From the NCBI GenBank assembly GCA_934771475.1, contig CAKVMD010000005.1, forward strand, positions 1,328 to 65,327: DNA of 64,000 nt, written 5' to 3'. This DNA is from an uncultured Clostridia bacterium (lineage in GTDB: Bacteria; Bacillota; Clostridia; Christensenellales; UBA1242). The notes under the pieces were generated by a model, which saw only the letters and a list, made by a program, of their open reading frames with translations, was not told the DNA's origin and did not search any database. This document shows positions 10,170 through 62,697 of the stretch, piece after piece (within the stretch, counting starts at the first letter, position 1; each line of letters starts with the position of its first letter). The translations under genes were made by a program, and so were the position numbers.

Positions 10170-10865
10170 TTAATTTCCGCTTAATATGCTCACTAGTGCT
10201 AGGGTGGCAACCACTGCTGTATCACAGCGAAGTATTCTTTTGCCGAGGCTGATGGTTTGACTTTTTGCGCTTATTGACTTAGCCTCTTCATCGGTAAAGC
10301 CTGCTTCATTTCCTATCACCACACAAATGTTTTGAGCGCCCTTAATCATTTCCTCGCAAAAAGGAGTTTCCGAATTTTCGTAAGCAAATATTATTTTATC
10401 AAACTCGTCTAATCTTTCAAGCATTTTATTAAAAGCGATAGGTTGGCCCACTTTTACAAGCGCAGAGCGTTCACATTGCTTGCAAGCAGTGGTTACCATG
10501 TTTTTAACGCGTTCTTCCTTAAACGCCTTCACCATTGTCCACTCGCTTGTGAAAAATTGTATTTCGCTCACACCCATTTCAATCGCTTTTGGAATAATGT
10601 TGTCAAAATATTCTTTTTTAGGCATCATTTGAAAAAGCACAATGTTTCGCTTTGGCGCGCCTTCATTTATTTTAACTTCGTCAATGTGGCATCTGCAAAA
10701 ATCTTTCTCAAACTTTTGCAAGGTGCAGTAATAATCATTTTCGTCATTTGTGCAAGCGATAATTTTATCCCCCTCGTTTAGACGCAAAACCTTTTTAAGG
10801 TGAAAATATTCATCGCCATCAATTAAAATGTCGTTATTTTCTTTTTTACCAAAAAATCTTTTCAT
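10170..10865 (-). CDS. rsmE: 16S rRNA (uracil1498-N3)-methyltransferase RsmE
   Basis: 231 aa. It has the RsmE pattern (HL.KVLRL..GD, VVIGNEAGFTDEE, ISLGKRILRCDTA). Confidence 0.85.
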   Translation of the reverse strand: MKRFFGKKENNDILIDGDEYFHLKKVLRLNEGDKIIACTNDENDYYCTLQKFEKDFCRCHIDEVKINEGAPKRNIVLFQMMPKKEYFDNIIPKAIEMGVSEIQFFTSEWTMVKAFKEERVKNMVTTACKQCERSALVKVGQPIAFNKMLERLDEFDKIIFAYENSETPFCEEMIKGAQNICVVIGNEAGFTDEEAKSISAKSQTISLGKRILRCDTAVVATLALVSILSGN

Positions 10866-11142
10866 GTTTCCTCTATGGTGATTATAACATAATTTAATTA
10901 AATTTAAAAGAGATTATTTAATAAATTAAAAAAGCCTATATTTTTTAAGTTTTACACGAAAAAAACAGATCTTTTTAGAAAAAATAGGGATTTTTGCTTT
11001 AATTATTTTGTAAACTTAGTTGAAGCACTTGCTTTCATTGCAAAGTTATTGTGTGCTTTTAAGTAAGGCGCTCACTTTGAGCGCGAAGTCATAGCGTGCC
11101 TGTAAATAACACACCGACATTGCCCATGAAGTTTTGCGGGCT

Positions 11143-11175
11143 AAAAAAGCAGGTTAAATATTAAACCTGCTTTAA
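11143..11175 (-). terminator. Intrinsic terminator after the Cys/Pro-rich gene
   Basis: 10-bp stem aaagcaggtt/aacctgcttt. The U-run is on the minus strand (plus-strand A-run 11143-11148). It lies 8 nt past the stop at 11183. Confidence 0.65.
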
Positions 11176-11182
11176 AAAACTT

Positions 11183-11497
11183 TTATAAGTTGCATTCCCT
11201 ACATATACTTGATGAAAATAGGTATCCAGCGAGGAAGAAAATCGCTGATTTTGGAACTGAGAATTGCACGCAATCACATCTTCTTTCGTTTCCCATGCAA
11301 CCATCTCCGCAAGGAGGGCATGGCTGTGGGCATGGTGGAAACTGTGGGGAAGAGCAAGGAAAGTTGTTCCAAGATGGAAATGAGGTGCAAGGGAAGCAGC
11401 AAGGAGAAGAACATGGAGAAAAGCATGGGTTTTGTCCATAGCAACAGTTTGGACGCAAAGACACGCATTTGCCCATTCTATAAGGACAAGTTTTCAT
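11183..11497 (-). CDS. Small Cys/Pro-rich protein, function unknown (possibly a spore coat-like structural protein)
   Basis: A strong RBS (aaaaggagcaatt-ATG) precedes 11497 and a terminator follows the stop. The sequence is MKTCPYRMGKC...PCFSPCSSPCCFPC...PPCPQPCPPCGDGC. Competing ORFs in four other frames lack an RBS. Confidence 0.6.
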   Translation of the reverse strand: MKTCPYRMGKCVSLRPNCCYGQNPCFSPCSSPCCFPCTSFPSWNNFPCSSPQFPPCPQPCPPCGDGCMGNERRCDCVQFSVPKSAIFFLAGYLFSSSICRECNL

Positions 11498-11553
11498 AAT
11501 TGCTCCTTTTAAAGTAATATACTTTGATTTTGCCTAGTAAAATATAGTGATTT

Positions 11554-12588
11554 ATGTTTTATGCTTTTTTGGCTCTTGTAGGTGGAGTTGTCGGTTCTGG
11601 GTTTATAACGGGCAAAGAAATTGCCGTATTTTTCGCAAGAAATGGTTATTTCGCCATTTTGGGTGCCATATTTTCAACAATCATTTTCTTTTTTCTTTTT
11701 AAATATTTTCTTTTTAATGGTGAAAAGGTGGCAAGGCTTCTTGCTTCGTCAAAATTATTCTTGTTTATATCGATATCGTTAAATGTAATCTTATCTGCCT
11801 CAATGCTGGCAGGCATTGTAGACATATCTTGCGAAATGGGAAAAGCCTCATTTTTGATTATAGCCATAACGCTTATTTCTTGCCTCTTCGTTTTTAAAAA
11901 GGGAATAAAGGCGCTTGACAGGCTCAACATCGCCTTAGTGCCACTTATGATTTTAGCGTTTGTGATAATCTTTGTGCCAAAACTTTCTCTAAACCTAAAT
12001 TTTGAAAAAGGAAGCATCCTTTCATCTTTGTGGTTTAGCATTCTTTACACTTCAATAAATATCGCAAACATGACACTGCTTCTTGCCTCGTTAGGGGCCA
12101 AACTGACAAGCAAGCAGAAAACGCAAGTGGCTTTTTGGGCAACACTTGCGCTTGGTGTTCTGCTTCTTTTAGTGGTGGCAGTTTTACTTCAAAATCAATC
12201 AGTTATAGGGCAAGATATGCCACTTCTTTCCTTGGTAAGTTCGTGGCAAAAGGTGGTTATGAGTGGGCTTATCTTCCTTGGAAGCGTAACCTCACTTTTC
12301 TCGTTTGTGTATTCGAGTTCATCATCCTTAAGAGGGCTGAACAAAAATGAAATGATAAACTTTTTTCTTTCAATTCTTTTGCCATTTATTTTAAGTTTTT
12401 TAGGATTTGGTTTTATCGTAACATATATTTACCCACTCGCAAGTGTTCTTGGCATCTTGCTTCTTGGAATGATTTTTTTGCCTCGATTATTTTTTAACCC
12501 TTTTCTCAAAAATGCCAACAAGAAGATACATTCCGCCCGCAAGAACACAAAGCAGAACGATACTGGTCATGACGATGTCAAGTTTTAA
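11554..12588 (+). CDS. Polytopic membrane protein, YkvI-like transporter family (tentative)
   Basis: 344 aa and hydrophobic throughout. The N-terminal GSGFITGKEIAVFF motif resembles YkvI-type permeases. The 3' end overlaps the convergent permease gene by 102 nt. Confidence 0.5.
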   Translation: MFYAFLALVGGVVGSGFITGKEIAVFFARNGYFAILGAIFSTIIFFFLFKYFLFNGEKVARLLASSKLFLFISISLNVILSASMLAGIVDISCEMGKASFLIIAITLISCLFVFKKGIKALDRLNIALVPLMILAFVIIFVPKLSLNLNFEKGSILSSLWFSILYTSINIANMTLLLASLGAKLTSKQKTQVAFWATLALGVLLLLVVAVLLQNQSVIGQDMPLLSLVSSWQKVVMSGLIFLGSVTSLFSFVYSSSSSLRGLNKNEMINFFLSILLPFILSFLGFGFIVTYIYPLASVLGILLLGMIFLPRLFFNPFLKNANKKIHSARKNTKQNDTGHDDVKF

Positions 12589-13305
12589 GATTTGACTGCC
12601 GTAGTTGATGAGGTATCCAAGCCCGGCTTGTGAGGAAAGGTATTCTCCCATAATTGTGCCGACCCAACTCATTCCTACATTAATTTTCAAAACGCTAACA
12701 AAGTCGGGAAGAGCGGATGGAAGCACAAGTTTAAAAAATGTTTGTGCTTTGCTTGCATGCATTGATTTCATAAGCAAAATTTTATCTTTGTCGCATGAAA
12801 TGAATGCATTGAGAGTGGAAATTATTGTAATGATGACGCAGATAAGCACGCACATAACAATAGTTGCGCTGGTACCAGAGCCCACCCAGAAAATAATCAT
12901 TGGCCCGAGGGCGATTTTAGGAAGGGAATTTAGAATTACAAGATATGGCTCTAACACCTTGCGCAAATTTTCGCTCCACCAAAGTGCAACAGCAATAACG
13001 AAGCCGATTGCGGAAGCAAGCAAAAATCCGATTATGGTTTCATAGAGTGAAGTCCAGATATGAATCCAAAGGTTGTTTTGACTGGCAAGAGCGCCAATAC
13101 AGGAGCAAATTCTAGAAGGGCTTGAAAAGAAAAATGGGTCTAAAACTTCAACGCTTGAAAGAAGTTCCCAAATCCCGAGGAAAATCAAGAAAAGAGCAAT
13201 TCGCCAAAAAATAACCCAAAATTTATTCTTTTTTACATTTTTTAAATAAATTTGGCGTGCTTTTGAAAAATTATTCTCTTTTTGCTTCAACATAAATCTC
13301 TCCAA
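12487..13305 (-). CDS. ABC transporter permease, NitT/TauT (SsuC/TauC-like) family
   Basis: 272 aa and multi-TM, with an EAA-like loop (MKSMHASKAQTFFKLVLPSALP). It is translationally coupled to the upstream ATPase. Confidence 0.8.
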   Translation of the reverse strand: MERFMLKQKENNFSKARQIYLKNVKKNKFWVIFWRIALFLIFLGIWELLSSVEVLDPFFFSSPSRICSCIGALASQNNLWIHIWTSLYETIIGFLLASAIGFVIAVALWWSENLRKVLEPYLVILNSLPKIALGPMIIFWVGSGTSATIVMCVLICVIITIISTLNAFISCDKDKILLMKSMHASKAQTFFKLVLPSALPDFVSVLKINVGMSWVGTIMGEYLSSQAGLGYLINYGSQILKLDIVMTSIVLLCVLAGGMYLLVGIFEKRVKK

Positions 13306-14042
13306 ATTTTTTCAAATAGCGTTCCAAATTTTTTGTCCTCTCGCTTTTCGAGAGGGCTTTTTTGTGGAAAAGACAAGAGGACTTCTTCTTTGACAGACGC
13401 TGGTCGAGATGACAAGATAATGACCTTATCGGACATACTTAACGCTTCCGAAATGTCATGAGTAACAAGTAGCGCTGTTTTTTCTTCCGTTTTTATAATG
13501 TCATACACATCATCGCAGACTTTAAGCCTCGTTTGAAAGTCGAGGGCTGAAAATGGTTCGTCTAGAAGTAAAAGAGCCGGCTCCATAACCAGAGTTCTAA
13601 TTAGGGCAACTCTTTGCCTCATGCCTCCGCTAAGTTGTCGAGGCTTTTTGTTTATAAAGTTGTAAAGGTCATATTTTTTGAGTAGCGAAAGGGCAAATTC
13701 TATCTTTTTTTCGTCCTTTGAAAGTTTGTTTATTTCAAGGCCTAAGGTAACATTTTGCCAAATAGTTCTCCACTCAAAGAGGTGGTCTTTTTGGAACATA
13801 TACCCGATTTTCTCATCGTTTTGTTTGACCTTTTCTCCGTCAAGCAAGATTTCTCCACTTGATGGCGATAAAAGTCCAGCAATGAGTGAAAGAATGGTGG
13901 TTTTACCGCAACCGCTTGGACCTACTAGCGAAGAAAAACTTTTTTCTTCAAGAGAAAAATTTATATCATCTAGTGCCTTTATCTCGCTTTCTTTTGTCTG
14001 GTAGAAAAAAGAGACATTTTTCATTTCTAGCAAGTTATTCAT
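13287..14042 (-). CDS. ABC transporter ATP-binding protein, NitT/TauT (SsuB/TauB-like) family
   Basis: Walker A GPSGCGKTT, signature LSGGMRQRV, Walker B LLLLDEPFSALD, and H-loop VTHD. Confidence 0.9.
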   Translation of the reverse strand: MNNLLEMKNVSFFYQTKESEIKALDDINFSLEEKSFSSLVGPSGCGKTTILSLIAGLLSPSSGEILLDGEKVKQNDEKIGYMFQKDHLFEWRTIWQNVTLGLEINKLSKDEKKIEFALSLLKKYDLYNFINKKPRQLSGGMRQRVALIRTLVMEPALLLLDEPFSALDFQTRLKVCDDVYDIIKTEEKTALLVTHDISEALSMSDKVIILSSRPASVKEEVLLSFPQKSPLEKREDKKFGTLFEKIWRDLC

Positions 14043-14176
14043 TGTTTGACCTCTACAATATCAGTCTAGCAAAAGAAGAGGGGGTTTGTTACAACTTTTC
14101 AAAATTTTTGGCAGTAAAGGTGGAAAAGCGCAACAAAGCGAAGGTATAATGTTGCCAAACTCAAAAAGGGGAACAA

Positions 14177-14467
14177 ATGGACGAGGAGGACATGATTAAA
14201 AAAGCCTTGCTTAAAAAAGCGTTAGGTTATGACGCGGACGATGTTGTTAAAGAGTACACGAGCGGGGAAGATGGTGATATTGTGCTAGCCAAAAAGAAAG
14301 TTACCACCAAACATTATGCGCCCGATGTGTCAGCGGTGAAACTACTTCTTGACAGGTACTATAAGACTTACAAAGAAATTGTGGACGAAATGACAGATGA
14401 AGCCCTTGAAGAGGAAAAGAATAGACTCGAAAGACTTATTAAGGAGGAAGAAGATGGAACTTCATGA
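14177..14467 (+). CDS. Small-terminase-like fragment (resembles the central/C-terminal part of Firmicute phage TerS and lacks an N-terminal HTH)
   Basis: The segment ALGYDADDVVKEYT...KKKVTTKHYAPDVSAVKLLLDRY resembles the ...GY.YEE...K.TTKHVPPDV.A..FWLKNR segment of phage TerS proteins. This is recognition by eye only. Confidence 0.4.
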   Translation: MDEEDMIKKALLKKALGYDADDVVKEYTSGEDGDIVLAKKKVTTKHYAPDVSAVKLLLDRYYKTYKEIVDEMTDEALEEEKNRLERLIKEEEDGTS

Positions 14468-14690
14468 GTGTAATCATTTTTGTAAATGCGACTTTAATGG
14501 CTGTAACAACAGAGCAAAATATACCTTCTCATGCGGTGGAAACATAAGGCGAGACCTTTGTTTTTGCGAAGAGTGCTTGAAAGGGATGTATAACGAAATT
14601 TCAAAAATGTTAGTGCCAAAAGCAATTAAAAGTCCATTTAAGATAAATCAAAGATTAAGGAGAGAAGATGAAAGAAGAAAAGATTGTTAA
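14454..14690 (+). CDS. Cys-rich putative zinc-ribbon protein (78 aa) occupying the slot where TerL normally sits
   Basis: ATG 14454 follows aaggagg. The sequence is MELHECNHFCKCDFNGCNN...FSCGG...CFCEECLKG. It overlaps both neighbouring genes. Confidence 0.55.
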   Translation: MELHECNHFCKCDFNGCNNRAKYTFSCGGNIRRDLCFCEECLKGMYNEISKMLVPKAIKSPFKINQRLRREDERRKDC

Positions 14691-16509
14691 AGAAGTCCTT
14701 GACGACTTTAAAAAGCGCGCCGAAGAGCGCAAAAGTTTTGACCTCATTTGGCAGATTAACTCTAACTTTTTAATGGGAAATCAATACTGCAATGTGGGTT
14801 ATGGTGGCGAACTTGAAGAGCAAGACCGTCAATTCTTTTGGCAAGAGAGGGAGGTTTTTAACCATATTGCGCCAATTTATGATATAAGATTTGCAAAACT
14901 GTCAAAGGTTAAGCCCGACATAAACATTTTACCTGCTACAAACGAAGAAAAAGACAAACAAATAGCCAAAATTTCTAAGAAAATATACCAATCTGTGAAA
15001 AATAAACTTGAAATCAATGAAAAAGTAAACCAAGCAATTAAATGGAGCGAGGTTTGCGGAACTGTGTTTTACAAAGTTGGCTGGAACTCCAATATTGGTC
15101 AGGTTGTTGGAATTGGTGATAACGATAAGAAGATTACTTCGGGTGAGGTTGAACTTAGCGTTGTAAGTCCTTTTGAAATCTATCCAGACTCAGCAACTTG
15201 TGAAAGTCTTGATGAGTGTCAAAGCATAATTCATGCCAAAGCGTATAAAACAAGCCAAATTAAGTCTATGTATGGCATTGATGTCAAGGGGCAAGATGTC
15301 AATGTGTTCTCGCTGGACGGAGTTAGTGGCTCGGTGGGAGGACTTGGCTTTAATGGAACAATGCCAAAGATTATTCAAACCCGCAAAGCAGATTCTGCGG
15401 TGGTTGTTGAAAGATATGTACGCCCTTGCGCAGAGTATCCAAATGGCAGACTTACGATAGTCGCAGGTGATAGGCTGGCATTTGATGGCGACCTTCCATA
15501 CATGATAAAAGACGAAAAGGAGCGTGATTTTCCTTTCATTAGACAAACCAGCATTGAAGAGCCGGGATGTTTCTGGGGAACCAGCGTAATTGAACGCCTT
15601 ATTCCTGTTCAAAGAGCGTACAATGCTGTAAAAAATCGTAAACACGAATTTATCAATCGTATTTCTATGGGCGTGCTTTCGGTTGAGGATGGCTCAGTCG
15701 ACCTTGATAATTTAGAGCAAGAGGGGTTGTGCCCGGGGAAAGTGCTGGTTTATAGACAAGGCGCAAAAGAGCCTCAATACTTGCAAAGCGAGGCTATAAG
15801 CGGAGAATTAGCAAAGGAAGAAGACGCACTTTTAGAGGAGTTTAACAAAATCAGTGGCGTCAGCGATATTTTAGGGACAAGTGGGGTTTCTGCAAATATG
15901 AGCGGGGTTACACTTGAACTTATGATTTCGCAAGATGAAACAAGGCTCAACGCCTCAGTTGAGTCCATCAAGATTGCAATGCGCGATATTGCCAAGAAGA
16001 TTTTAAAACTTTATAGACAGTTTGCAGTTTTCCCACGCCTTGCAAGAATTGTGGGCGAAAATGGCGATGTGGAAATATTCTATTTCTCATCAAGCGATAT
16101 CACAAGCGATGACATAATCGTAGATGACTATGCAGACACAAATCAAACCCTTTCTCAACGCCGAGAAATGATTTTCAACTTGCTAGAAAATGGAATTTTG
16201 ACGGATGAGAAAGGCAATCTTACAAACAAAATGAAAACAAAAATCATGGAGATGCTGGGCGTTGGTGCGTGGGAAAGCGCCCAAGACATAAACGAACTCC
16301 ACATTAAAAAAGCGGATAAAGAAAACTTTAAACTGCTTGATGGCATAAATTTAAAGCCTAGTGAAATTGATGACCACGAACTTCACATAAACGAGCACGT
16401 GGCTTTTATGCTTGGTGAAGATTTTGAGAAGAAAAAAGCCAAAAATCCAAAAATAGAACAAATCTTTTTAGAGCACGTTAAGGCTCACAAGATGATGAAG
16501 GAGGAATAA
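14668..16509 (+). CDS. Phage portal protein
   Basis: 613 aa, positioned immediately upstream of the scaffold and coat genes. The N-terminal ...R.SFDLIWQINSNFLMGNQY and overall size are typical of portals. Confidence 0.75.
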   Translation: MKEEKIVKEVLDDFKKRAEERKSFDLIWQINSNFLMGNQYCNVGYGGELEEQDRQFFWQEREVFNHIAPIYDIRFAKLSKVKPDINILPATNEEKDKQIAKISKKIYQSVKNKLEINEKVNQAIKWSEVCGTVFYKVGWNSNIGQVVGIGDNDKKITSGEVELSVVSPFEIYPDSATCESLDECQSIIHAKAYKTSQIKSMYGIDVKGQDVNVFSLDGVSGSVGGLGFNGTMPKIIQTRKADSAVVVERYVRPCAEYPNGRLTIVAGDRLAFDGDLPYMIKDEKERDFPFIRQTSIEEPGCFWGTSVIERLIPVQRAYNAVKNRKHEFINRISMGVLSVEDGSVDLDNLEQEGLCPGKVLVYRQGAKEPQYLQSEAISGELAKEEDALLEEFNKISGVSDILGTSGVSANMSGVTLELMISQDETRLNASVESIKIAMRDIAKKILKLYRQFAVFPRLARIVGENGDVEIFYFSSSDITSDDIIVDDYADTNQTLSQRREMIFNLLENGILTDEKGNLTNKMKTKIMEMLGVGAWESAQDINELHIKKADKENFKLLDGINLKPSEIDDHELHINEHVAFMLGEDFEKKKAKNPKIEQIFLEHVKAHKMMKEE

Positions 16510-17115
16510 ATGGAAGAAAGAGAACAACCGACAGTGGAACCGGCAAATGTTTTAAACGTAACGGAGGAGGAAAGTGCTGTGAGTGAAGTCGGCTCTCGCG
16601 AAAAAGCAGACCTTGGGAAATTCAAAAGTGTGGAGGACCTTATGGACGCATATAACTCTCTGCAAAGCGAGTTTACAAGGAAATGCCAACAGCTTAGTCA
16701 AACGCTAAAAGATAAAACGGAAATTGAAACGCCAAAAGAAAAGGAAACTTTTGATGAGGGGAAATTCAATGCGTTCCTTGAAGAAAATGACAAGGCAAAA
16801 AACTATGCTGACGAGATTAAAAATCTTGTTACAGAAAAAGGCTCTGCCTCTTATGAGGACGCTTGGGGCAGGGCGCTTTTAAATCGTATTAATAATGACG
16901 AGAACTCTTCAAGCGACCCTCTTATTAATCAGTATGTTTTATCTAACGAAGAATTAAAAAACAAAGTTATCGAAGATTATCTTGAAAGGCTCAAAGGGGC
17001 AAGTGCTCCTTATGTGATGGCTTCTTCTGGTGGTGAGAGACTTTCAAGCGTAAGTGAGCAAAGTCCCACCACGCTTGAAGAAGCGAAACTTCTTACAAGA
17101 AAAATGTTTGAATAA
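16510..17115 (+). CDS. Phage capsid scaffolding protein
   Basis: 201 aa, acidic and predicted helical. The GKFKSVEDLMDAYNSLQSEFTRK motif is common in Firmicute phage scaffold proteins. It lies between the portal and coat genes. Confidence 0.7.
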   Translation: MEEREQPTVEPANVLNVTEEESAVSEVGSREKADLGKFKSVEDLMDAYNSLQSEFTRKCQQLSQTLKDKTEIETPKEKETFDEGKFNAFLEENDKAKNYADEIKNLVTEKGSASYEDAWGRALLNRINNDENSSSDPLINQYVLSNEELKNKVIEDYLERLKGASAPYVMASSGGERLSSVSEQSPTTLEEAKLLTRKMFE

Positions 17116-17196
17116 TTAAAGATTTTCGACAGATTTTTCGTTAAAAAACATCAAAAAACAAGTAAAAACTATAAAAACGAAGAAAAAGGAGAAAAA

Positions 17197-18414
17197 ATGG
17201 TTACTTTACAAACAGCAGATAATGCTTTAAAAAATGTATATCTTGGAGTTGTAGCAAACCAACTCAATGTTAAAGCAAACCCACTTCTTGCAAAAATCAA
17301 ACGCACAAGCAAAGATGTGTGGGGAAAAGAAATTAGAAAACTTGCACCATTCGGAATTAATGGCGGTGTAGGTGCAGGTGGCGAAACCGATGCACTTCCA
17401 GATGCTTCTGGCAATGGATATGTTCAATTCGTAAGCGAACTTAAAAACCTTTATGGCAAAATTGAAATTTCAGACAAGGCAGTAAGAGCAAGTCAAAACA
17501 ATATTGGTGCTTTTGTCAACCTTTTAACTGATGAAATGGAAGGACTTGTTAAGGCAAGTGCTTTCAACCTTGGAAGAATGTTGTACGGTGATGGAACTGG
17601 ACTTCTTGCAACAGTTTCTGCCGTTTCAAGCAAAACTCTTACTTGCGATAAGGTAAACAATCTTATTGAAGGGATGCTTGTTGATGTTTACTCAACCAGC
17701 GGAAAAGTAAATACAACTCCACTCAAAATCACTTATGTAGATAGAGTAAATAAGAAATTCACTTATGCTGGTACATCGGGCACAATTTCAGCAAATTGCA
17801 AAGTTTATGTTCAAGGCTCAAAAGACAAAGAAATCTCAGGTCTTGGCAAAATCTTTGATTCAAGCGCAACTTCAATCTATGGAGTTAGCAAGTCAGACAA
17901 CCCATGGCTTACCCCTTATGTAAGCACAACCGAACAAGAGATTTCTGACATTGTTATCCAACAAGCGATTGACTTCCTTGACATGAATGTTGACAGCCAA
18001 ATCAACTTTATTTCTTGTTCTAGTCAAGTTAGACGCGCATATCAAGAATATCTTGGCGCTTATAGAAGAAACATTGATATTGCAGTTCTTGACGGCGGAT
18101 ACAAAACAATCACTCACAACGGTATTCCAGTTGTTGCAGACAGATTTGTTGATAATGATACTATGTATCTTCTTAACACAAACGACTTTACTCTTCATGA
18201 ACTTTGCGACTGGCAATGGTTACAAGGTGAGGACGGCAGAATTTTGAAACAAAAAGAAGGCTATCCAACATACTCTGCAACCCTTGTTAAATATGCTGAA
18301 CTTATTTGTGATAAGCCATGCGGACAAGCAAAAATTTCTGGAATTAAGTCAACAGTAACAAACCCTTTTGCTACAAATGTTACTGTAAACAATACATCTT
18401 CACAAACTGAATAA
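17197..18414 (+). CDS. Phage major capsid (coat) protein
   Basis: 405 aa with a strong RBS (aaaaaggagaaaaa-ATG), following the scaffold gene. Size and composition are typical of coat proteins. Confidence 0.7.
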   Translation: MVTLQTADNALKNVYLGVVANQLNVKANPLLAKIKRTSKDVWGKEIRKLAPFGINGGVGAGGETDALPDASGNGYVQFVSELKNLYGKIEISDKAVRASQNNIGAFVNLLTDEMEGLVKASAFNLGRMLYGDGTGLLATVSAVSSKTLTCDKVNNLIEGMLVDVYSTSGKVNTTPLKITYVDRVNKKFTYAGTSGTISANCKVYVQGSKDKEISGLGKIFDSSATSIYGVSKSDNPWLTPYVSTTEQEISDIVIQQAIDFLDMNVDSQINFISCSSQVRRAYQEYLGAYRRNIDIAVLDGGYKTITHNGIPVVADRFVDNDTMYLLNTNDFTLHELCDWQWLQGEDGRILKQKEGYPTYSATLVKYAELICDKPCGQAKISGIKSTVTNPFATNVTVNNTSSQTE

Positions 18415-18555
18415 TTAAAAATTTATAAAGGCAAAATTTCTTTTTTAGGGCAAAATGTTTAAGTCTAATTTTAGGGCGAAATTCTGTTTTCAAGACTTAA
18501 ATATGCTTAAAAAATTGATTTTTTGCCTTTTTAATAAATTTTGGAGGCGAAAATC

Positions 18556-18867
18556 ATGAAAAATCTTCTAATTATTGAAGGGGATACTTTTTTTATAAAT
18601 GAAAGACTAAAAGAAATTGATAAGGACTATTTTATCGTTTTCAATCTTGAAAAACAAAAATATGAAGTTCATGTTCACGGGCAAGCGAAAAGTAGTTATG
18701 CTTTTACTTTGCCTTTTGACGGCCTTGACGAGCGGACAATACTGTTTGCTCAAAAAACTCGCATTGCCAATATGGACAAAATTTTAGATGAGATTGAAAA
18801 AGATAACGAAAAGTCTTACGAGCGCCTCATAAAACAGCAGGTGAATTTATTGAAGGAGATAATATGA
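18556..18867 (+). CDS. Hypothetical phage-module protein (103 aa)
   Basis: ATG 18556 follows ggagg. It is coupled to the next gene through the ATGA overlap at 18864-18867. Confidence 0.55.
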   Translation: MKNLLIIEGDTFFINERLKEIDKDYFIVFNLEKQKYEVHVHGQAKSSYAFTLPFDGLDERTILFAQKTRIANMDKILDEIEKDNEKSYERLIKQQVNLLKEII

Positions 18868-19418
18868 AAGTAAAAGATATAATCATTTTAGCGCTAGATT
18901 TTTGTCATGAAGACAGCCTTGCTTCACTTTTAAGGACGGAGAACCCAACCTTGACTGACGAACAGCAAGAAAAAGTAAACTCTTTCACAAGGTGCTTCAA
19001 TCTTGTTTATGAAGAATTGTCAAGCCAATATCTTCCAATAATAAAAACTGAAACTGTTAGTGCTACCGATGGAAAAGTGCTTTATTCTAGTCTATCTCAA
19101 AAAGTGCTAGATGTTGTGGAGGTTAAAAACGCACATGGCAGAAAAATCAAATTTAGAAAGTTTGATTCTTACCTTTTTGCTCTTGCCAGTGAGGTAACAG
19201 TGTCATATAAAACCCTTCCAAACGCTTTGACAGAGTCGAGTGAATTTTCTTGCCCATTGCCCGAGCGAATTTTTGCCTATGGCGTGGCGAGAGAGTTTTT
19301 CTATTTGCAAGGGGCAAGCGATGAAGCTGAAATCTATGACAACCGCTACAAAGACAGCCTTCTTGTTTTGCTTGGTAAGTCAAAAGAGATAAAAATGCCC
19401 GCGAGGGGGTGGATTTAA
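18864..19418 (+). CDS. Putative head-completion / head-tail adaptor protein (184 aa)
   Basis: Its position and size match gp4/gp6-type adaptors that follow the coat gene. The sequence assignment is weak. Confidence 0.4.
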   Translation: MKVKDIIILALDFCHEDSLASLLRTENPTLTDEQQEKVNSFTRCFNLVYEELSSQYLPIIKTETVSATDGKVLYSSLSQKVLDVVEVKNAHGRKIKFRKFDSYLFALASEVTVSYKTLPNALTESSEFSCPLPERIFAYGVAREFFYLQGASDEAEIYDNRYKDSLLVLLGKSKEIKMPARGWI

Positions 19419-20899
19419 TGCTATATTTAAATAAGCACGCCCCAGCCAAGGCGAAAACAAAAGAGGTTTCCATCTCTTTTGCACAAAAGGACACTTTGGC
19501 TGACGACCCAAAAGAGGGAAAAGGTGAACTTGTTTATAATATTACGATAAACAGGGGAGCACTAAAAAGTGGACTAGGTTTTGAAAAACTTGCCTCTTCA
19601 CTTGATACAGAAGACCTTGATGATGAAGTGGTTTTGCCACTGCGAGGGACTCAGGTTAAGGCAATAGACCAACTCTGTTGGCATGACAAATCTGGTGGAA
19701 TAACCTACTATTTTGTTTTCTACTATAACAATGAAGGGTTAATTTGCTATGATGAACTTTTTGCCGAGCGCATACTTACACATATCATTCAAAACGATTT
19801 TACTGATATTCCAACCACATTCCCATATATGAGCAATGGCATCGAACACTTGGTCTTCTCTGGGAAAGGTACAACCTTACTTATAGGGAACGCTGGATAT
19901 AGAAATCTTGAAAATGTTCCGGGTATGCTTTCATGTGTAAGTCATTATGGAATGTTTTTTGGGATAAAAATTGGCACTCCACCAAAACTTATTTACTCAT
20001 CAGTTACCGACCTTACAAAGTGGGATGATACGCTGGTCAAAAACCTTGACTTTACTGACGCAAGGGGAGACCTTACAAGGCTTGTTTCGTTTAATGACTA
20101 TGTCTATATATTTAGAAACTTTGGGATAACTCAACTTTCTAAATATTCGCAGGATGAAGAATTCTCGATAAGTCATATGTATCAAGCCTGCTCTTATATA
20201 AATCCAAACACTATTTGCCAATTTAGAGACGCGGTCTATTTTGTTGAAGATTGCACTTTGAAAGTCTTTAATGGCAACAGCGTAAAGGATATAGAAGTTA
20301 AAAACTTTAAATATATGAAAGGTGTTACAAACACTGCACTTTTTGGAACGTGCTACAAGGGCAAGTACTACCTTGCTTGCAGGTGCGATTTCGGTGATGA
20401 TGAAGTCGTGGGATGCGAGGGGTATACAGCCGGCTACACAAACAATGCACTTATTTCTTACGACCTTACAACAGGTGAAGAAGAAATTTTAAGAGGGGTG
20501 GATATTAAGCAAATTATGAATTTTGTTTCACCTTTTAAGTGCAAACTTTTAGCATGTTTTAGAAATCAGCATATTGATAAAATAGGGCAACTTACTTCTG
20601 ACGGCAAACTTTTTGGTCAAGTGCTAAAAAGCAAGTTTGAAAGTACCTATACTGATTTTGGCGCAAAAAGCGCCCGTAAAACGCTTACAAAAATCACTTA
20701 TAAATGCAATGGAAAAGTTGCGTGTAAGATTATTTGTGATGGACAGGAAAAAACTTTCACACTTGAAGGTAATGGCGTCATGAAAACAAAAAGATTGTCT
20801 ATGACTGGGAGAGAATTTAAATTTGTCTTGACCGGAGACCTTTCACCAATAAATCTTGATGACTTTGTGGTAACGGCTAAAATTCGTGATGAAAATTGA
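19418..20899 (+). CDS. Hypothetical 493-aa phage-module protein (possibly a portal-proximal hub or plug, beta-rich)
   Basis: The TAATG stop/start overlap at 19416-20 couples it to the upstream gene (the ORF track uses the in-frame GTG at 19409). Its size and position parallel P22 gp10. I recognised no motif. Confidence 0.5.
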   Translation: MLYLNKHAPAKAKTKEVSISFAQKDTLADDPKEGKGELVYNITINRGALKSGLGFEKLASSLDTEDLDDEVVLPLRGTQVKAIDQLCWHDKSGGITYYFVFYYNNEGLICYDELFAERILTHIIQNDFTDIPTTFPYMSNGIEHLVFSGKGTTLLIGNAGYRNLENVPGMLSCVSHYGMFFGIKIGTPPKLIYSSVTDLTKWDDTLVKNLDFTDARGDLTRLVSFNDYVYIFRNFGITQLSKYSQDEEFSISHMYQACSYINPNTICQFRDAVYFVEDCTLKVFNGNSVKDIEVKNFKYMKGVTNTALFGTCYKGKYYLACRCDFGDDEVVGCEGYTAGYTNNALISYDLTTGEEEILRGVDIKQIMNFVSPFKCKLLACFRNQHIDKIGQLTSDGKLFGQVLKSKFESTYTDFGAKSARKTLTKITYKCNGKVACKIICDGQEKTFTLEGNGVMKTKRLSMTGREFKFVLTGDLSPINLDDFVVTAKIRDEN

Positions 20900-20988
20900 A
20901 GTTAGATATTTCGTCCGTTTAGTAAGAGCGAGAGAAAAAGAAAGACTTTTTCAAAAGTTTGAATCGTTCTTGCCAAAAGGAGAAATAA

Positions 20989-21216
20989 ATGAATTTTTGG
21001 AATGAACTTGTTAAAATCGTCATAAGCAACGGTGTTTTTGCGACACTCTTTGTTTTCTTGTTTTTCTATCAACTTAAAGATTCTACGCGTAGGGAAAAGG
21101 AGTATCGCACAACGATAGACAACCTTATGAAGCATCTTAAAATTATTGATGAAGTTAGGGCGGAAGTAAGCGACCTGAAAGATTTAGTTTTGGAGAAGCA
21201 AAATGAAAAGGTTTAA
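20989..21216 (+). CDS. BhlA/UviB-family holin-like protein
   Basis: 75 aa with a single N-terminal TM (GVFATLFVFLFFYQLKDSTRREKEY) followed by a coiled-coil tail, the classic BhlA/UviB layout. RBS is aaaaggag. Confidence 0.7.
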   Translation: MNFWNELVKIVISNGVFATLFVFLFFYQLKDSTRREKEYRTTIDNLMKHLKIIDEVRAEVSDLKDLVLEKQNEKV

Positions 21217-21517
21217 AAATTATGGATTTTGGACTGCTCTTTCTGGCGCTCTCGTGCTATTTCTTACAACTTTGGGTGAAGCCTTTGGGTTTTCAATCCA
21301 TCAAGAAACGGTTTCAAATCTTGTTATGGCACTAGCCGAACTTCTTGTAGTTTTTGGGATTGTTGTAATGCCAAAAAATAAAGAGGACAGTTCGACAGGA
21401 GAAAATAAAGGTGGCGATGATGCTACTAGCGAAGACAAACAAGAAGATGACGGAAAAGTGGAAGAAAAAGAAGAGTCGCAAGGCGAAAAGCCAAATGACG
21501 AAAACGAAAAAGAGTAG
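21203..21517 (+). CDS. Phage holin (two TM, SPP1/phi-LC3-like) with an acidic C-terminal tail
   Basis: The sequence MKRFKNYGFWTALSGALVLFLTTLGEAFGFSI....VSNLVMALAELLVVFGIVVMPKNK shows a two-TM holin topology. Confidence 0.65.
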   Translation: MKRFKNYGFWTALSGALVLFLTTLGEAFGFSIHQETVSNLVMALAELLVVFGIVVMPKNKEDSSTGENKGGDDATSEDKQEDDGKVEEKEESQGEKPNDENEKE

Positions 21518-21531
21518 TCTTTTCACAACTT

Positions 21532-21566
21532 AAAAAAGTCGGCATATTTTGTGCCGACTTTTTTGT
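21532..21566. terminator. Strong intrinsic terminator closing the phage-head operon
   Basis: 13-bp stem aaaaaagtcggca/tgccgactttttt with loop tattttg, plus a T-run. The flanking A-run makes it bidirectional. Confidence 0.85.
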
Positions 21567-47590: not shown

Positions 47591-50500
47591 ATGACTAAAA
47601 CTAAATTAAAATCAAAGAAACTTGCAAAAGGAGTTGCTCTTGGTTTTGCTGCAATGCTTACAACCACTGCTTTGCCAGTAGGTGCAATGGTTGCTCTTGC
47701 AGAAGATTGGAAGGGTGCGACTCTTACCAATAGTACAAACAGAATTGCTGTTGGTGCTGAAAATGTATCAACTTCTTCTTATGTAACAAAGGGGGAAACT
47801 GTTACAATCCCACAAGGACTCTATTATGGAAAGAGCGCAACTGCTCACACAATAGGAAGCGCGGTAAGCGGAACTATCACAAAATCTAATGTGTTTGTTT
47901 CATACTCGGCAACTGGCGACAACATTGAAGTAAACGATGGTAAGTTCATTGCGGACAGAGTTGGTTCATACAAAATCACTTATGCGGTTGTGGACAATGG
48001 CGTTCTTTATACTTACGAACTTGATGTAGTTTGTGAGGCAAGTGATGCAGAATTTGAGTTCGCTTCAAACAGTGAACTTGTTGTGCCATCAGTTTATGAT
48101 GTAGCGATTGCAAACGGAAAAGACATTGTTCTTCCACTTCCAAAAGTTAATAACGAAGACGGAAAAGAAATCCTTTCAAGTGATGTGTCAAACTTTACAA
48201 CCTCAGTTAGTGCTCCACAAGGCAAAAACTCATTTGTTGTTGTATCAATCACAAATGGTAGCGATGACCTTCAAGTTGAAGAAATTAAAGATGCAAACGA
48301 AAATGTAACTGGATTTGCTGTAAAGGGCGAAAATATCACAAGCGACCTTAAAGGCAAAGAATATACTATTGCTTATGACTATTATGAAGTTAAAGATAGC
48401 AAAAACATTTTTGTTGCCTCTACAACAAAAACATTCACAGTTAGAGACGGATACTATCGCAAATCTTCAAAAGAAAATGCTGAAAAGGGTTATGACCTTG
48501 TTGCTACTTTGTCAACTAAGCCAGACAGTGCAGTTGTGGGCGTAGAAAAAACTCTTCCTACAATTTCTGCTAAAACTAAGGCTGAAAACACGCCTTCTGG
48601 TGAAAGCGTAGAAATTTACTATACTTTAAAGGTTTACACAAAGGACGCAAATGGCGCTTACAAGACTGATGTTACTGAAAGCGTTATCACAGAGGATGGC
48701 AAATTCAAAGCAAACGCGGAAGGGGATTACCTCTTTGAATACATCGCACATGACTTCTATGGCAACACAAACGAGGACAGCAAAGCAACTACAACTTTCA
48801 CTATCACAAAAGTGAAAGATACAAAAGAGCCAGATGTTTATATGTATGATGCAGGCGCTCGCACCGAAGAAGAAAAGACTGCCGGAACATACCGTAGCGC
48901 AGAAACTGCTCTTAAAAGCCAAACAACAAACAGAAATATTGTTATGTATGCTGTTGGTGGGGTTGATAATATGCCAACAAACACTCTTACCCTTCGTAGA
49001 GAAATTTGGGATGGCTCTTACATTAAGAGATATGTTATTAAAGAGCAAGCATACAATGATTACAACTTAATCTTTGCGCCAACTGCTGGAACTGGAACTG
49101 ATGTTTATAGTCAAATAGTTGCAGATAACTACGAGATTTATAGACAAATGATTGTTGACGGGAAAAACACTGAGGACACCGCAACTATCAAAACATGGCT
49201 TAAAGAACACAACTATCTTCTTGTAACTAACACCTTTAATAAAGATGTTGAAGGAAATGATATTGTTGATAATATGGACTCACGCGCAGAAGGTGCTGTT
49301 CAAAAACTCCTTAATGGCGAAGAAGTAGACGCAGACCTTAAACAAATCGCAGAAGATGCAGTTAAGAATATGCTTAACGCTGGTTATGCATATATTAAGC
49401 CTGTAACCAAGGATTATGCATTTTCAAAAAATGATACTTATACTTTCTATTTCTATGCTAACGACAATATTAACAACAATAAGGAAGGACAAATATCTTA
49501 CAGCGTAAAACTTTCAGAAGATTTCACTGATGAGTCAGCACCAACATTGACTTTCCCAACAGACCTTCAATCATCTTATCTTCCAAACGACACTATCACA
49601 TTCAAAACAATTAATTCTTCTAATGTGGCAGACAATGGAGTAGATAAGTATCCTGTTGTTGGAACTGCTTATAGATACCTTAAAAATTCTTTATCTGGCA
49701 GAGTTGCGGTTGCAAGCGAAGACACAACTGATACTCTCACTTATGTTGCAAAAGGTAAAACAGCATCAAAAGACGAAAACAAATATTACTATGCAAATAG
49801 AGATGCAAATGGTCTCTTCTCTATGGAAGGCTGGCACATTGACAATGAAGCAACATCTTACAAGATTGATCTTTCAAAGCGTCCAAGTGAGGCTCAATAT
49901 GTAGAAATCCTTGCTTACGCCATTGATGACTTTGGCAACATTGGATTCTACAACAAGGTTATAAGAATTGCATCAACTGACACTGCACTTCCTGAACTTA
50001 AAGTTGTTGCCAATGCACCAACTGGAACAGTTTATCAAGCGCCAGAAACAATTAACCTTCCAACTCTTCAATATAGTGATGACAGAGTAGAAGGAATGCA
50101 CGCTCGCGTTGACCTTTACAGAATCACAAGAAATGAAGAAAACGAAGAAACTTCAAGACAAAAATTGGCAACGAGTGATATGACAACATACTATGACACA
50201 ACAAGAGGCGTGTTCACTGTTGACGCAGGTTCATTTAATGCTTCAAGCGCCGGTGAATATCAAGTTGTTGTTACAGTTATCGACTCTGCAAATCATACTC
50301 TTTCAACCTACTTTAACTATAATGTTACAGGTGCAACCGTTGTTGAAGAGCCAGAAATTTCAAATGTCTCAACTGAAACAAAAGAACTTGAACTTGGAAA
50401 ATCTTTGTATCTTCCAGCTCCAACTCTTTCAGTTAGCGAGTCAAGTGAATATGGCTATATCGGACTTGGGGACGAAGATGATTCTAACAATGCAACATAC

Positions 50501-51733
50501 TACTTCCCACAAGTTATCTCAGCAACAAGCAGTGATTATGACCTTGATGGACAATATTTCACTGGAAACACAAAGGGAACATACAAACTTCAATACAATG
50601 TGTTCTTGCTTCGTTACAGCAAGGCAGAGGCAAACTTTGCAGAAACTGCAACTGACAACAAACTCTCTCTTGATGCCAACGGAAAACTCGTGTTTACAAC
50701 AGGTGGCGTAAACTACTATGTTTATATTGCTAAGACTGATAATGAATTTGTTCTCCATGCAAATACTCAGTTAGATGGAACAGGTGAAGACCTTGCAGAT
50801 AGCACAAGACTTAGCCAAATCGTTAAGACTTTTGCTCTTAAATCAAAGACTATCACAATTTCAGTTAAAGATGTTGTCATTGATGTAACAATGCCAAACA
50901 ACGCTTATGCTAAAACTGACTATCCAACGGTTGGAGGAAGTATTGAAATCGTTAAACCTGAGGTTGTAGTTGGTGGTTCATATTCCGTAAACAAGAAAGA
51001 TTCATTAGTTACAATCACTTATTCTTCAAACTCTTCTAGCAGTGAAACTCTTGCTAAAATAAGTCTAGAAAAATGGGAAAAGGCTATTGAGTCAACAAAC
51101 GCTAACTTTACCGTAAATGGTTCTAAAATCAGCCTTAATCTTTCTAAAAATGGTCAATATAAGATTGCTTACTCAATTCAAGCACAAAATGCTTATGGCG
51201 AAAATGTTGGCGATCCAAAAGAACTCTCATATACTATTAAGAGCGGTGATAATACTAAACCTACTCTTGAAGTTAAGTCAGGCAAAATCGCAACAGACTT
51301 TGCTTTGGGCGATACTATGACGATTGAATTTACTGGTGCAACTGCACAAGACATTTTCAATTTGGAAGACAACAAGACTGGTCTTGAAGAACTCCTTAAA
51401 ACCTTAAAAGTAACTTTGAAAGGACCAAGCAAGACTGAAACCTTAGACAATAAGGCAGAGGGAGATAATCAGTATAAATACACTTGCAGTTTTGAAGAGG
51501 CTGGTGATTATACTCTTACTTTCCAAGTTACAGATGAAGCGGGCAATTTAAGTGCTCCTGAAAAGATTTCATTCACAGTAAAAGCAAAAGAAACTAAACC
51601 TGTAAATGTAAAAAATGTAATGGGTGGTGTTCTTATTGGCGTATCCGTAGCACTTCTTGGAGGAGTTGTAATTTACTTCATTGTAAGCAAAGTTAAACTC
51701 GATAAGAAAGAACGCTCATATAAGAAGAGATAA
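47591..51733 (+). CDS. Large secreted, C-terminally membrane-anchored surface protein (1380 aa, beta-rich repetitive domains)
   Basis: It has an N-terminal signal peptide (KKLAKGVALGFAAMLTTTALPVGAMVALAEDW) and a single C-terminal TM plus basic tail (VMGGVLIGVSVALLGGVVIYFIVSKVKLDKKERSYKKR). There is no LPXTG. Repeated motifs of the type ...G.Y...Y.A.D..GN... are consistent with Ig-like modules. Confidence 0.8.
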   Translation: MTKTKLKSKKLAKGVALGFAAMLTTTALPVGAMVALAEDWKGATLTNSTNRIAVGAENVSTSSYVTKGETVTIPQGLYYGKSATAHTIGSAVSGTITKSNVFVSYSATGDNIEVNDGKFIADRVGSYKITYAVVDNGVLYTYELDVVCEASDAEFEFASNSELVVPSVYDVAIANGKDIVLPLPKVNNEDGKEILSSDVSNFTTSVSAPQGKNSFVVVSITNGSDDLQVEEIKDANENVTGFAVKGENITSDLKGKEYTIAYDYYEVKDSKNIFVASTTKTFTVRDGYYRKSSKENAEKGYDLVATLSTKPDSAVVGVEKTLPTISAKTKAENTPSGESVEIYYTLKVYTKDANGAYKTDVTESVITEDGKFKANAEGDYLFEYIAHDFYGNTNEDSKATTTFTITKVKDTKEPDVYMYDAGARTEEEKTAGTYRSAETALKSQTTNRNIVMYAVGGVDNMPTNTLTLRREIWDGSYIKRYVIKEQAYNDYNLIFAPTAGTGTDVYSQIVADNYEIYRQMIVDGKNTEDTATIKTWLKEHNYLLVTNTFNKDVEGNDIVDNMDSRAEGAVQKLLNGEEVDADLKQIAEDAVKNMLNAGYAYIKPVTKDYAFSKNDTYTFYFYANDNINNNKEGQISYSVKLSEDFTDESAPTLTFPTDLQSSYLPNDTITFKTINSSNVADNGVDKYPVVGTAYRYLKNSLSGRVAVASEDTTDTLTYVAKGKTASKDENKYYYANRDANGLFSMEGWHIDNEATSYKIDLSKRPSEAQYVEILAYAIDDFGNIGFYNKVIRIASTDTALPELKVVANAPTGTVYQAPETINLPTLQYSDDRVEGMHARVDLYRITRNEENEETSRQKLATSDMTTYYDTTRGVFTVDAGSFNASSAGEYQVVVTVIDSANHTLSTYFNYNVTGATVVEEPEISNVSTETKELELGKSLYLPAPTLSVSESSEYGYIGLGDEDDSNNATYYFPQVISATSSDYDLDGQYFTGNTKGTYKLQYNVFLLRYSKAEANFAETATDNKLSLDANGKLVFTTGGVNYYVYIAKTDNEFVLHANTQLDGTGEDLADSTRLSQIVKTFALKSKTITISVKDVVIDVTMPNNAYAKTDYPTVGGSIEIVKPEVVVGGSYSVNKKDSLVTITYSSNSSSSETLAKISLEKWEKAIESTNANFTVNGSKISLNLSKNGQYKIAYSIQAQNAYGENVGDPKELSYTIKSGDNTKPTLEVKSGKIATDFALGDTMTIEFTGATAQDIFNLEDNKTGLEELLKTLKVTLKGPSKTETLDNKAEGDNQYKYTCSFEEAGDYTLTFQVTDEAGNLSAPEKISFTVKAKETKPVNVKNVMGGVLIGVSVALLGGVVIYFIVSKVKLDKKERSYKKR

Positions 51734-62622: not shown

Positions 62623-62697
62623 GCTGGTATGGCTTAATGGGAAAGCGCGGCCTTGGTAAGGCCGAGAGAGCGGGTCCGATCCCCGCTACCAGCTCCA
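62623..62697 (+). tRNA. tRNA-Thr (anticodon GGU) with encoded CCA and an atypical T-loop
   Basis: It folds as a cloverleaf by hand: acceptor GCTGGTA/TACCAGC, D-arm GCTT-AATGGGA-AAGC, anticodon arm CGGCC-TTGGTAA-GGCCG, and T-arm GCGGG-TCCGATC-CCCGC (TCC instead of TTC). The 3' end is T-CCA. Confidence 0.75.

Follow-up and report, generated by a model that had tools for sequence, protein, structure and literature searches.

The 64,000-nucleotide stretch analysed here (the window) belongs to an uncultured Clostridia bacterium of the Christensenellales (GenBank assembly GCA_934771475.1, contig CAKVMD010000005.1) and carries a block of phage head genes at 14177-21517. The block consists of ten co-directional, translationally coupled open reading frames (ORFs). 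For convenience, genes named g1, g2, g6, g7 and g8 are numbered by their order in the block. The features are as follows, with E-values of family matches in brackets.

14121..14150, + strand: sigma-70-like promoter candidate TGGAAA-18-TATAAT, consensus match 10/12, 27 nt 5' of g1
14177..14467, + strand: g1, truncated protein resembling the small terminase subunit (TerS), 96 aa (phrog_309 1.4e-5, profile positions 198-280 of 319)
14454..14690, + strand: g2, four-cysteine protein, 78 aa, zinc-ribbon-like, with a strong ribosome-binding site
14668..16509, + strand: portal protein of P22/SU10 type, 613 aa (PF16510 3.2e-18, PF23899 4.7e-9, phrog_156 7.9e-37)
16510..17115, + strand: putative scaffolding protein, 201 aa, assigned from its P22-like place after the portal gene and before the coat gene
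17197..18414, + strand: major capsid protein (coat) of the podovirus-type HK97-fold family, 405 aa (NF033394 capsid_maj_Podo 1.7e-78, phrog_14242 1.7e-52)
18556..18867, + strand: g6, conserved small protein, 103 aa, in the position of P22 orf69 and present in all loci
18864..19418, + strand: g7, probable head-to-tail adaptor, 184 aa, directly 5' of the nozzle gene and coupled to it
19418..20899, + strand: g8, predicted podovirus tail nozzle/hub, 493 aa, modelled as a beta-propeller plus beta-sandwich and matched by Foldseek
20989..21216, + strand: BhlA-family small membrane protein, holin-like, 75 aa (PF10960 2.4e-14, phrog_2429 2e-10)
21203..21517, + strand: phage holin, 104 aa (PF04531 1.9e-4, phrog_297 2.3e-10, TIGR01598 1.7e-6)
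21531..21565, + strand: intrinsic-terminator-like hairpin of 16 pairs with a 3-nt loop and a T-run, at the 3' end of the block

An initial annotation of this DNA had described ten packed ORFs with a promoter-like box, a terminator and housekeeping flanks, and its coordinates and junctions are confirmed. The ATG of g2 at 14454 precedes the end of g1 at 14467 and has the ribosome-binding site AAGGAGG on its 5' side. Likewise, the starts of the portal gene (14668), g7 (18864) and the holin gene (21203) lie before the ends of g2 (14690), g6 (18867) and the BhlA gene (21216), respectively. The portal and scaffold genes abut (16509/16510), and a TAATG at 19416-19420 combines the stop codon of g7 with the start codon of g8. 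Ribosome-binding sites are good at the internal starts of the block, and public assemblies (P0241) also use the start that yields 493 aa for g8. Homology to Pfam-annotated relatives identifies an ABC ATPase/permease on the left flank and comEC-holA on the right. Outside the block, the window is ordinary chromosome (HrcA, DnaJ, RsmE, ABC transporter, ComEC, HolA, Der, SpoIVA, PcrA, LigA, EF-G, EF-Tu). The G+C content of the block (0.33-0.43, versus 0.37 for the whole window) is unremarkable.

Among the ten block proteins, no Pfam, PHROG or NCBIfam match points to integration, replication or lysogeny genes, and none is a needle protein, an ejection protein or a tailspike. The block holds no endolysin. 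Comparison of one flank with the other reveals no att-like direct repeats. The sole match between the flanks, an 18-nt direct repeat (13922-13939 and 21423-21440, 17/18 bases), was considered as an att site and rejected; both copies are coding, in the ABC ATPase gene and the holin gene, and the match is judged to be chance. The earlier observation that the locus lacks the large terminase subunit (TerL), an integrase and att repeats therefore stands, as tblastn, family searches and the repeat search are all negative.

Because g1 covers only about positions 198-280 of the 319-position TerS profile, it lacks the N-terminal part that binds DNA in full-length small terminases. Its orthologs match the same profile in 38/40 cases (best, 1.9e-8), and in relatives that carry TerL, g1 lies directly 3' of TerL. 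Against the Protein Data Bank (PDB), g1 gives spurious repeat-protein matches only. Residues C12, C17, C38 and C41 of g2 are invariant across 68 orthologs; g2 has no family match in Pfam, PHROG, NCBIfam or a further profile search, and g6 has no informative one in Pfam, PHROG or a further profile search. The coat also weakly matches TIGR01554, and its identity to the coats of the nearest cultured phages (Arthrobacter, Microbacterium, Cellulosimicrobium) is only 24-28%. The protein in the scaffold position has no family match and is encoded by the least conserved large gene of the block, with 31-94% identity. The holin scores 22.4 bits against PF04531, for which the cut-off is 22.

The AlphaFold2 model of g8, made from a 67-sequence alignment, is all-beta, with a predicted local distance difference test score (pLDDT) of 87.9 and a predicted template-modelling score (pTM) of 0.88. 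In Foldseek searches of the PDB, the best match is the Pa223 tail (9nwi_Y, E=1.7e-18, TM 0.71), together with the VP1 portal-tail (8zkk_O, TM 0.70) and the P22 tail complex (9jg6_a, a 470-residue chain, E=2e-12, TM 0.60). Further matches are SU10, GP4, the PhiM1 nozzle, the crAss001 muzzle and T7 gp12. The sequence profile of g8 touches the SU10 tail protein 7z47_G (E=0.0075). Its comparison with P22 gp10 by hhalign is negative although the folds match, indicating that sequence methods are blind at such a distance. On the model, g8 belongs to the nozzle class of P22 gp10 and T7 gp12, and with this fold the block encodes the core of a short tail. The initial annotation had reported no tail in the block, which no longer holds given this nozzle fold and an adaptor assigned by position. 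Its proposal of a P22-like gene order is strengthened by the nozzle, as the order in P22 itself is coat-orf69-gp4-gp10.

G7 is a probable adaptor like P22 gp4 or T7 gp11, judged only from its place before the nozzle gene. The adaptor role gains no support from a profile search against PDB sequences, from PHROGs on 40 orthologs or from hhalign against P22 gp4, and the single-sequence AlphaFold model of g7 is unusable (pLDDT 40). Profile and structure searches, which had been suggested earlier for all ten proteins, thus bear out g8 as a nozzle and g1 as TerS-like, and give no family for g2, g6 and g7.

The block is widely conserved. More than 6262 coat homologs are present in a collection of 5.8 billion proteins; the best 120 all have at least 76% identity, many of them on contigs of 100-370 kb. 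A scan with one genome per species yields 134 coat relatives, all from metagenome-assembled genomes (MAGs) that come from the guts of humans, mice, rabbits, deer and yaks and are assigned to uncultured Clostridia, Eubacteriales or 'Christensenella sp.'. To compare the loci, we searched 80 fetched species-level loci with the ten window proteins by tblastn. The ten genes occur in identical order in every locus that covers them, and gene order and flanks are alike in about 60 species-level loci. Identity to the window proteins is 66-97% for the coat (97% for that of contig CAKVOP010000001.1), 52-98% for the portal and 28-87% for g8. Portal, scaffold, coat, g7 and g8 are all full-length in 56/57 loci with complete coverage of the block.

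The ratio of nonsynonymous to synonymous substitution rates (dN/dS; Nei-Gojobori method, NG86, 16 close pairs) is low for the block genes: 0.01-0.06 for portal, 0.02-0.06 for coat, 0-0.12 for g1, 0-0.14 for g2, 0.03-0.13 for g8, 0.03-0.26 for g7, 0.04-0.23 for g6, 0.08-0.33 for scaffold and 0.12-0.40 for holin. The flanking genes give 0.01-0.21 (ABC ATPase), 0.05-0.14 (comEC) and 0.10-0.25 (a 344-aa gene), and dS is comparable within the block and in the flanks. By dN/dS, selection is not relaxed relative to clades that carry TerL. The pairwise identities of the ABC ATPase correlate with those of portal (Spearman 0.87) and g8 (0.90); the pairs are non-independent, and these values describe a pattern rather than a formal test. 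The correlation between block and flank is at least as tight as that between one housekeeping gene and another, and mean pairwise identity is 0.76 for the coat and for the adjacent ABC ATPase alike. Random decay is excluded by the synteny, the intact ORFs, the low dN/dS and the co-divergence with the flanks. The block is an old, vertically inherited, selected part of these genomes. In accordance, the initial annotation had seen a streamlined, selected unit rather than decay, and the comparison of the same locus in relatives, which it had proposed, finds the same ten genes under purifying selection no weaker than in their housekeeping neighbours.

In most relatives within the window's clade (most of loci L008-L048), a pair of conserved genes, c16 (~360-560 aa) and c14 (~660-736 aa), lies between the holin gene and comEC in either orientation (for example, L008 13539-17028 and L001 14497-16665); neither has a family match. 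The window and locus L007 are without the pair, and comEC follows directly 3' of the terminator. C16 and c14 could be a fibre or receptor-binding module that has been lost, or unrelated surface proteins.

A sister clade (clade A), which includes 'Christensenella sp. UBA5893' (L067), carries four further genes directly 5' of g1. These are c44, a phage regulator of late transcription (phrog_36 1.9e-12) whose helix-turn-helix resembles sigma-70 region 4; c45, which is divergently transcribed; TerL; and an ~800-aa protein with GLUG/M26_N/InlB-repeat matches. The clade A TerL is intact (Terminase_6N 1e-17 and 6C), with conserved Walker and nuclease motifs and a dN/dS of 0.02. A DUF7934 protein is encoded 3' of the nozzle gene in this clade. 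The order common to such elements is activator, c45, TerL, g1, g2, portal, scaffold, coat, g6, g7, g8, (extra gene), DUF7934, BhlA, holin, and it recurs in about 45 IMG/VR contigs and in dozens of contigs from metagenomes. Where longer flanks are seen, they are housekeeping genes on both sides (GyrB/GyrA/SSB; MurJ; ThyA/DHFR; IspG, RimP, NusA; RNase J), with no integrase or replication genes. Because of these flanks and the lack of such genes wherever seen, the whole family looks domesticated, beyond the clade of the window. The locus in the window's clade is without c44, c45, TerL, the GLUG-motif protein and DUF7934; basal members of the clade keep an ~100-aa remnant of DUF7934.

A minimal version with eight genes in ~8 kb occurs in a single lineage, in two genomes (L176 10001-18045; L178 10001-17950). 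It contains TerL, g1, portal, scaffold, coat, g7, a shorter g8 of ~400 aa and DUF7934, without g2, g6 and the holins, and lies between housekeeping genes, with IspG/GcpE on the 3' side in both genomes.

The element also sits at differing spots of one chromosomal neighbourhood (ileS, c40, c30, c23 ... dnaJ, rsmE, ABC transporter ... comEC, holA). It is directly 5' of c40-c30 in one lineage and several genes 3' of c40-c30 in the window's clade (L235, L237, L242, L244 and L261 compared with L046, L048, L053, L055 and L060), which suggests local rearrangement, not independent insertions. A supposed second copy of the element just 5' of ileS-c40-c30-c23 was dismissed, as the ORF there is a tRNA-synthetase-like C-terminus and not the 165-aa element protein.

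TerL also occurs apart from the head genes. The metagenome scan contains lone activator-c45-TerL modules, some with the GLUG-motif protein, that have no head genes on their 3' side. In one of them (L250, bases 1-14,618 of the 29,559-bp contig ERZ1643251 NODE-1260), eight genes lie 3' of TerL, and the five beyond these are syntenic (38-64% identity) with genes that directly precede the head block in four basal loci (L056, L071, L072 and L080). For L250, this synteny places TerL about 13 kb 5' of g1. Another module (L191) abuts homologs of genes 5' of g1 in L066 (a 714-aa gene, 71% identity), and a third (L198) abuts a homolog (59%) of the gene between dnaJ and rsmE in L032. The lone TerLs group in subclades of their own. 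A split architecture with an intact TerL thus exists in lineages close to that of the window, and we infer that the TerL module may be separated from the head module in the window's lineage as well. A TerL acting in trans is argued for indirectly by the constraint on the TerS-like g1 and on the portal, which is unrelaxed compared with TerL-bearing clades. The initial annotation had called the block self-contained. That view is not upheld, as relatives carry the late activator, c45, TerL, the GLUG-motif protein and DUF7934, and related lineages have a separate locus.

The closest described system is the gene transfer agent (GTA) of Faecalibacterium prausnitzii, FpGTA. It is encoded by a podovirus-like ten-ORF operon that includes a TerS without its DNA-binding domain, TerL, portal, coat and nozzle, and by a second locus 125 kb away with fibres, holin and endolysin; its 40-nm particles contain 8.4-8.9 kb of host DNA, and particles, DNA and proteome have been shown experimentally (Borodovich et al., Nat Commun 2026, PMC12946183). 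The block resembles FpGTA in its Gram-positive gut anaerobe host and in being a chromosomal operon of roughly ten podovirus-type genes, among them portal, coat, a gene in the scaffold position, the tail nozzle and a TerS-like protein that lacks the DNA-binding domain. Both lack replication and integration genes and are conserved throughout the host genus, and the genes of the block's system are probably divided among several loci, as they are in FpGTA. However, the FpGTA coat is annotated as 'N4-gp56 family' (RCH50849.1), whereas the window coat belongs to NF033394 capsid_maj_Podo and has no match to the N4-gp56 model at E<=0.1. In FpGTA, TerL is in operon I and holin, endolysin and fibres are in operon II; here the holins stand with the head genes and TerL is missing from the locus. 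Moreover, FpGTA particles are demonstrated, whereas the block is known from its genes alone. Compared by annotation, the block works like FpGTA on paper and is not a demonstrated homolog.

RcGTA of the Alphaproteobacteria is a vertically inherited head-tail cluster under purifying selection, with dispersed loci, a TerS without a specific DNA-binding domain and lysis genes under host control. The block shares with it the domesticated head-tail cluster under purifying selection, the lack of a specific DNA-binding domain in TerS and, probably, the dispersal of genes. RcGTA differs in its siphovirus-like long tail, its unrelated gene set, the presence of TerL within the main cluster and its proteobacterial host.

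With P22, SU10 and T7, the block shares the order TerS-(TerL)-portal-scaffold-coat-small ORF-adaptor-nozzle, the portal family PF16510/PF23899 and the predicted nozzle fold. In contrast to these phages, it is not embedded in a phage genome, and it lacks a TerL in cis as well as needle, ejection proteins and tailspike. A P22-like podovirus prophage was rejected as an identity, since the block has no more of the morphogenesis set than portal, coat and nozzle, plus genes that correspond to scaffold and adaptor by position. Capsid-forming phage-inducible chromosomal islands (cf-PICIs) and PBSX are similar in having phage-derived particle genes in the chromosome while the full phage is absent. However, cf-PICIs are mobile and carry integrase, replication genes and att sites, none of which the block has, and PBSX, although defective, is a complete myovirus-like prophage that has TerL and a tail. 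An anti-phage defence system was also considered and set aside; PADLOC gives two marginal matches only (E 0.0025 and 0.0098).

With moderate confidence, we read the block as one half, with the structural genes and the holins, of a split-locus, anciently domesticated, podovirus-like and GTA-like element. A large clade of spore-forming, uncultured gut Clostridia (Christensenella-like MAGs) carries the block as a fixed part of the chromosome. Several traits of GTAs are found: a structural cluster at a fixed chromosomal locus that is inherited vertically with the host, purifying selection (dN/dS ~0-0.14 for portal, coat, g1, g2 and g8) and no detected phage genes for replication, integration or lysogeny. 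The TerL module in the window's lineage would be separated from the head module, much as the genes of RcGTA and FpGTA are divided between loci. Upon induction, proheads would be built from portal, scaffold and coat. TerL, together with a TerS-like g1 devoid of DNA-binding domain, would load them headful-wise with non-specific host DNA. G7 and g8 would then close the portal and form a stub tail, and BhlA, the holin and an unlinked lysin may release the particles. Particle production and DNA packaging are what we infer from this gene content. Of the earlier idea of a domesticated capsid or particle system, domestication is borne out by vertical inheritance and selection; independence from other genes is not, given the partner module in relatives.

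Several findings weigh against this reading, most of them concerning TerL. Searches by tblastn with the TerLs of Microbacterium phage Shocker and clade A find no homolog in the 64-kb window. The 10 kb to the left and 8 kb to the right of the window hold housekeeping genes and a tRNA-Thr island, and no TerL. The span around the block that is free of TerL thus extends from -24 kb to +50 kb (74 kb). No TerL lies within 10 kb of about 60 related loci, with tblastn matches in clade A only. When a TerL profile is run against the 5.8 billion proteins, 6/6 matches examined are elements with TerL in cis and none is from the window's lineage; IMG/VR scans with TerL alignments likewise give cis-type elements only. 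In addition, two proteins that relatives conserve, DUF7934 and the GLUG-motif protein, are missing here, so that the particle may be reduced in function; the block also lacks an endolysin, and the adaptor and scaffold roles are assigned solely by gene position.

The lack of TerL within 74 kb of the block and near the related loci is what a different reading would predict, namely that the motor is truly lost and that the block has been exapted to make DNA-free or otherwise loaded particles, for example acting on other cells, or a cargo shell. The stepwise loss of activator, c45, TerL, GLUG-motif protein and DUF7934 from the locus, with the DUF7934 remnant in basal members, fits this as well, as does the still unrelaxed selection on the remaining genes. 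However, a TerS-like protein without TerL has no known role, yet g1 is strongly constrained, and portal, adaptor position and nozzle form a channel for DNA. Related lineages with an identical head-block architecture keep TerL at a separate locus, and the inspected part is a small fraction of each genome. We regard this exaptation as unlikely. The stricter statement that the window's lineage is without any large terminase, while portal, coat, TerS-like protein, nozzle and holins remain under housekeeping-level constraint throughout the clade, seems slightly more doubtful still. If it is true, a stub-tailed phage head has been exapted for a function without terminase-driven DNA packaging.

The block could also depend on a helper, as a satellite-like capsid module to which a co-resident phage, or a complete second copy of the element, lends TerL, fibres and lysin. 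TerL, fibres and endolysin are indeed missing from the block, and complete relatives of the element occur in the same metagenomes. However, integrase, replication gene and att site are all absent, and a mobile satellite would show the reverse of the fixed position and host co-divergence seen over dozens of species; a block fixed by vertical descent cannot depend for so long on a variable helper. This makes helper dependence quite improbable, and the capsid-forming satellite offered by the initial annotation, including one of cf-PICI type, is abandoned on the same grounds. Least probable by far is a functionless prophage remnant in the course of erosion. TerL, fibres, lysin, integrase and repressor are missing, as erosion would have it, and two loci are incomplete: in a metagenome contig with the TerL-bearing arrangement (L173 7667-9617), the interior between mid-portal and the g8 region is deleted, and a MAG contig has the coat-to-holin half only, with unrelated genes in place of the upstream half (L039 1-4965). 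Each may be real decay or an assembly artefact. Against erosion stand dN/dS values of 0.01-0.13 for portal, coat and g8, the intact ORFs in all but one of the whole-block loci, the preserved translational coupling and a coat as conserved as the adjacent ABC ATPase. The matching dS and the co-divergence with the flanks also counter a variant in which the loci are recent horizontal copies.

If the block is the structural half of a GTA-like element, as we favour, it bears on recent observations in the gut. GTA-like packaging of host DNA is reported to be the commonest capsid-mediated DNA mobilisation in the human gut and to occur in Christensenellales MAGs (QANA01, ~6.3-kb reads), for which the gene cluster was not identified (PMC12946183); for the GTA reading of the block, this is indirect support. 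The block and its TerL-bearing relatives are a concrete and very widespread candidate for such packaging in uncultured Clostridia, spanning more than 6000 coat-homolog protein clusters and about 130 species-level genomes. The family forms a natural series, from compact operons of 8-15 genes with TerL in cis to split loci, in which the dismantling of a phage during domestication is testable. The series also bears on whether a head module stays selected without its motor.

Other features of the window lie apart from the block. A gene for tRNA-Thr (62623-62697) precedes one for a phage-type integrase (62917-63996, - strand). An island immediately beyond the window end (L269 12084-19194) carries AAA_23/DUF2326, MC6/MC7 and CTD11 domain proteins and an SMI1_KNR4/SUKH immunity-type protein. 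Together they look like an integrated defence or conflict island with no relation to the head block. The stretch 2097-3422 (- strand), flanked by hrcA and the gene of a U32 peptidase, encodes a 441-aa protein consisting almost entirely of ankyrin repeats (Ank_2 2e-64); its length differs in near-identical assemblies (376 versus 441 aa). Finally, 47591-51733 encodes a 1380-aa protein whose sole domain match is a C-terminal Big_13/PKD Ig-like domain, and which is probably a large surface protein.

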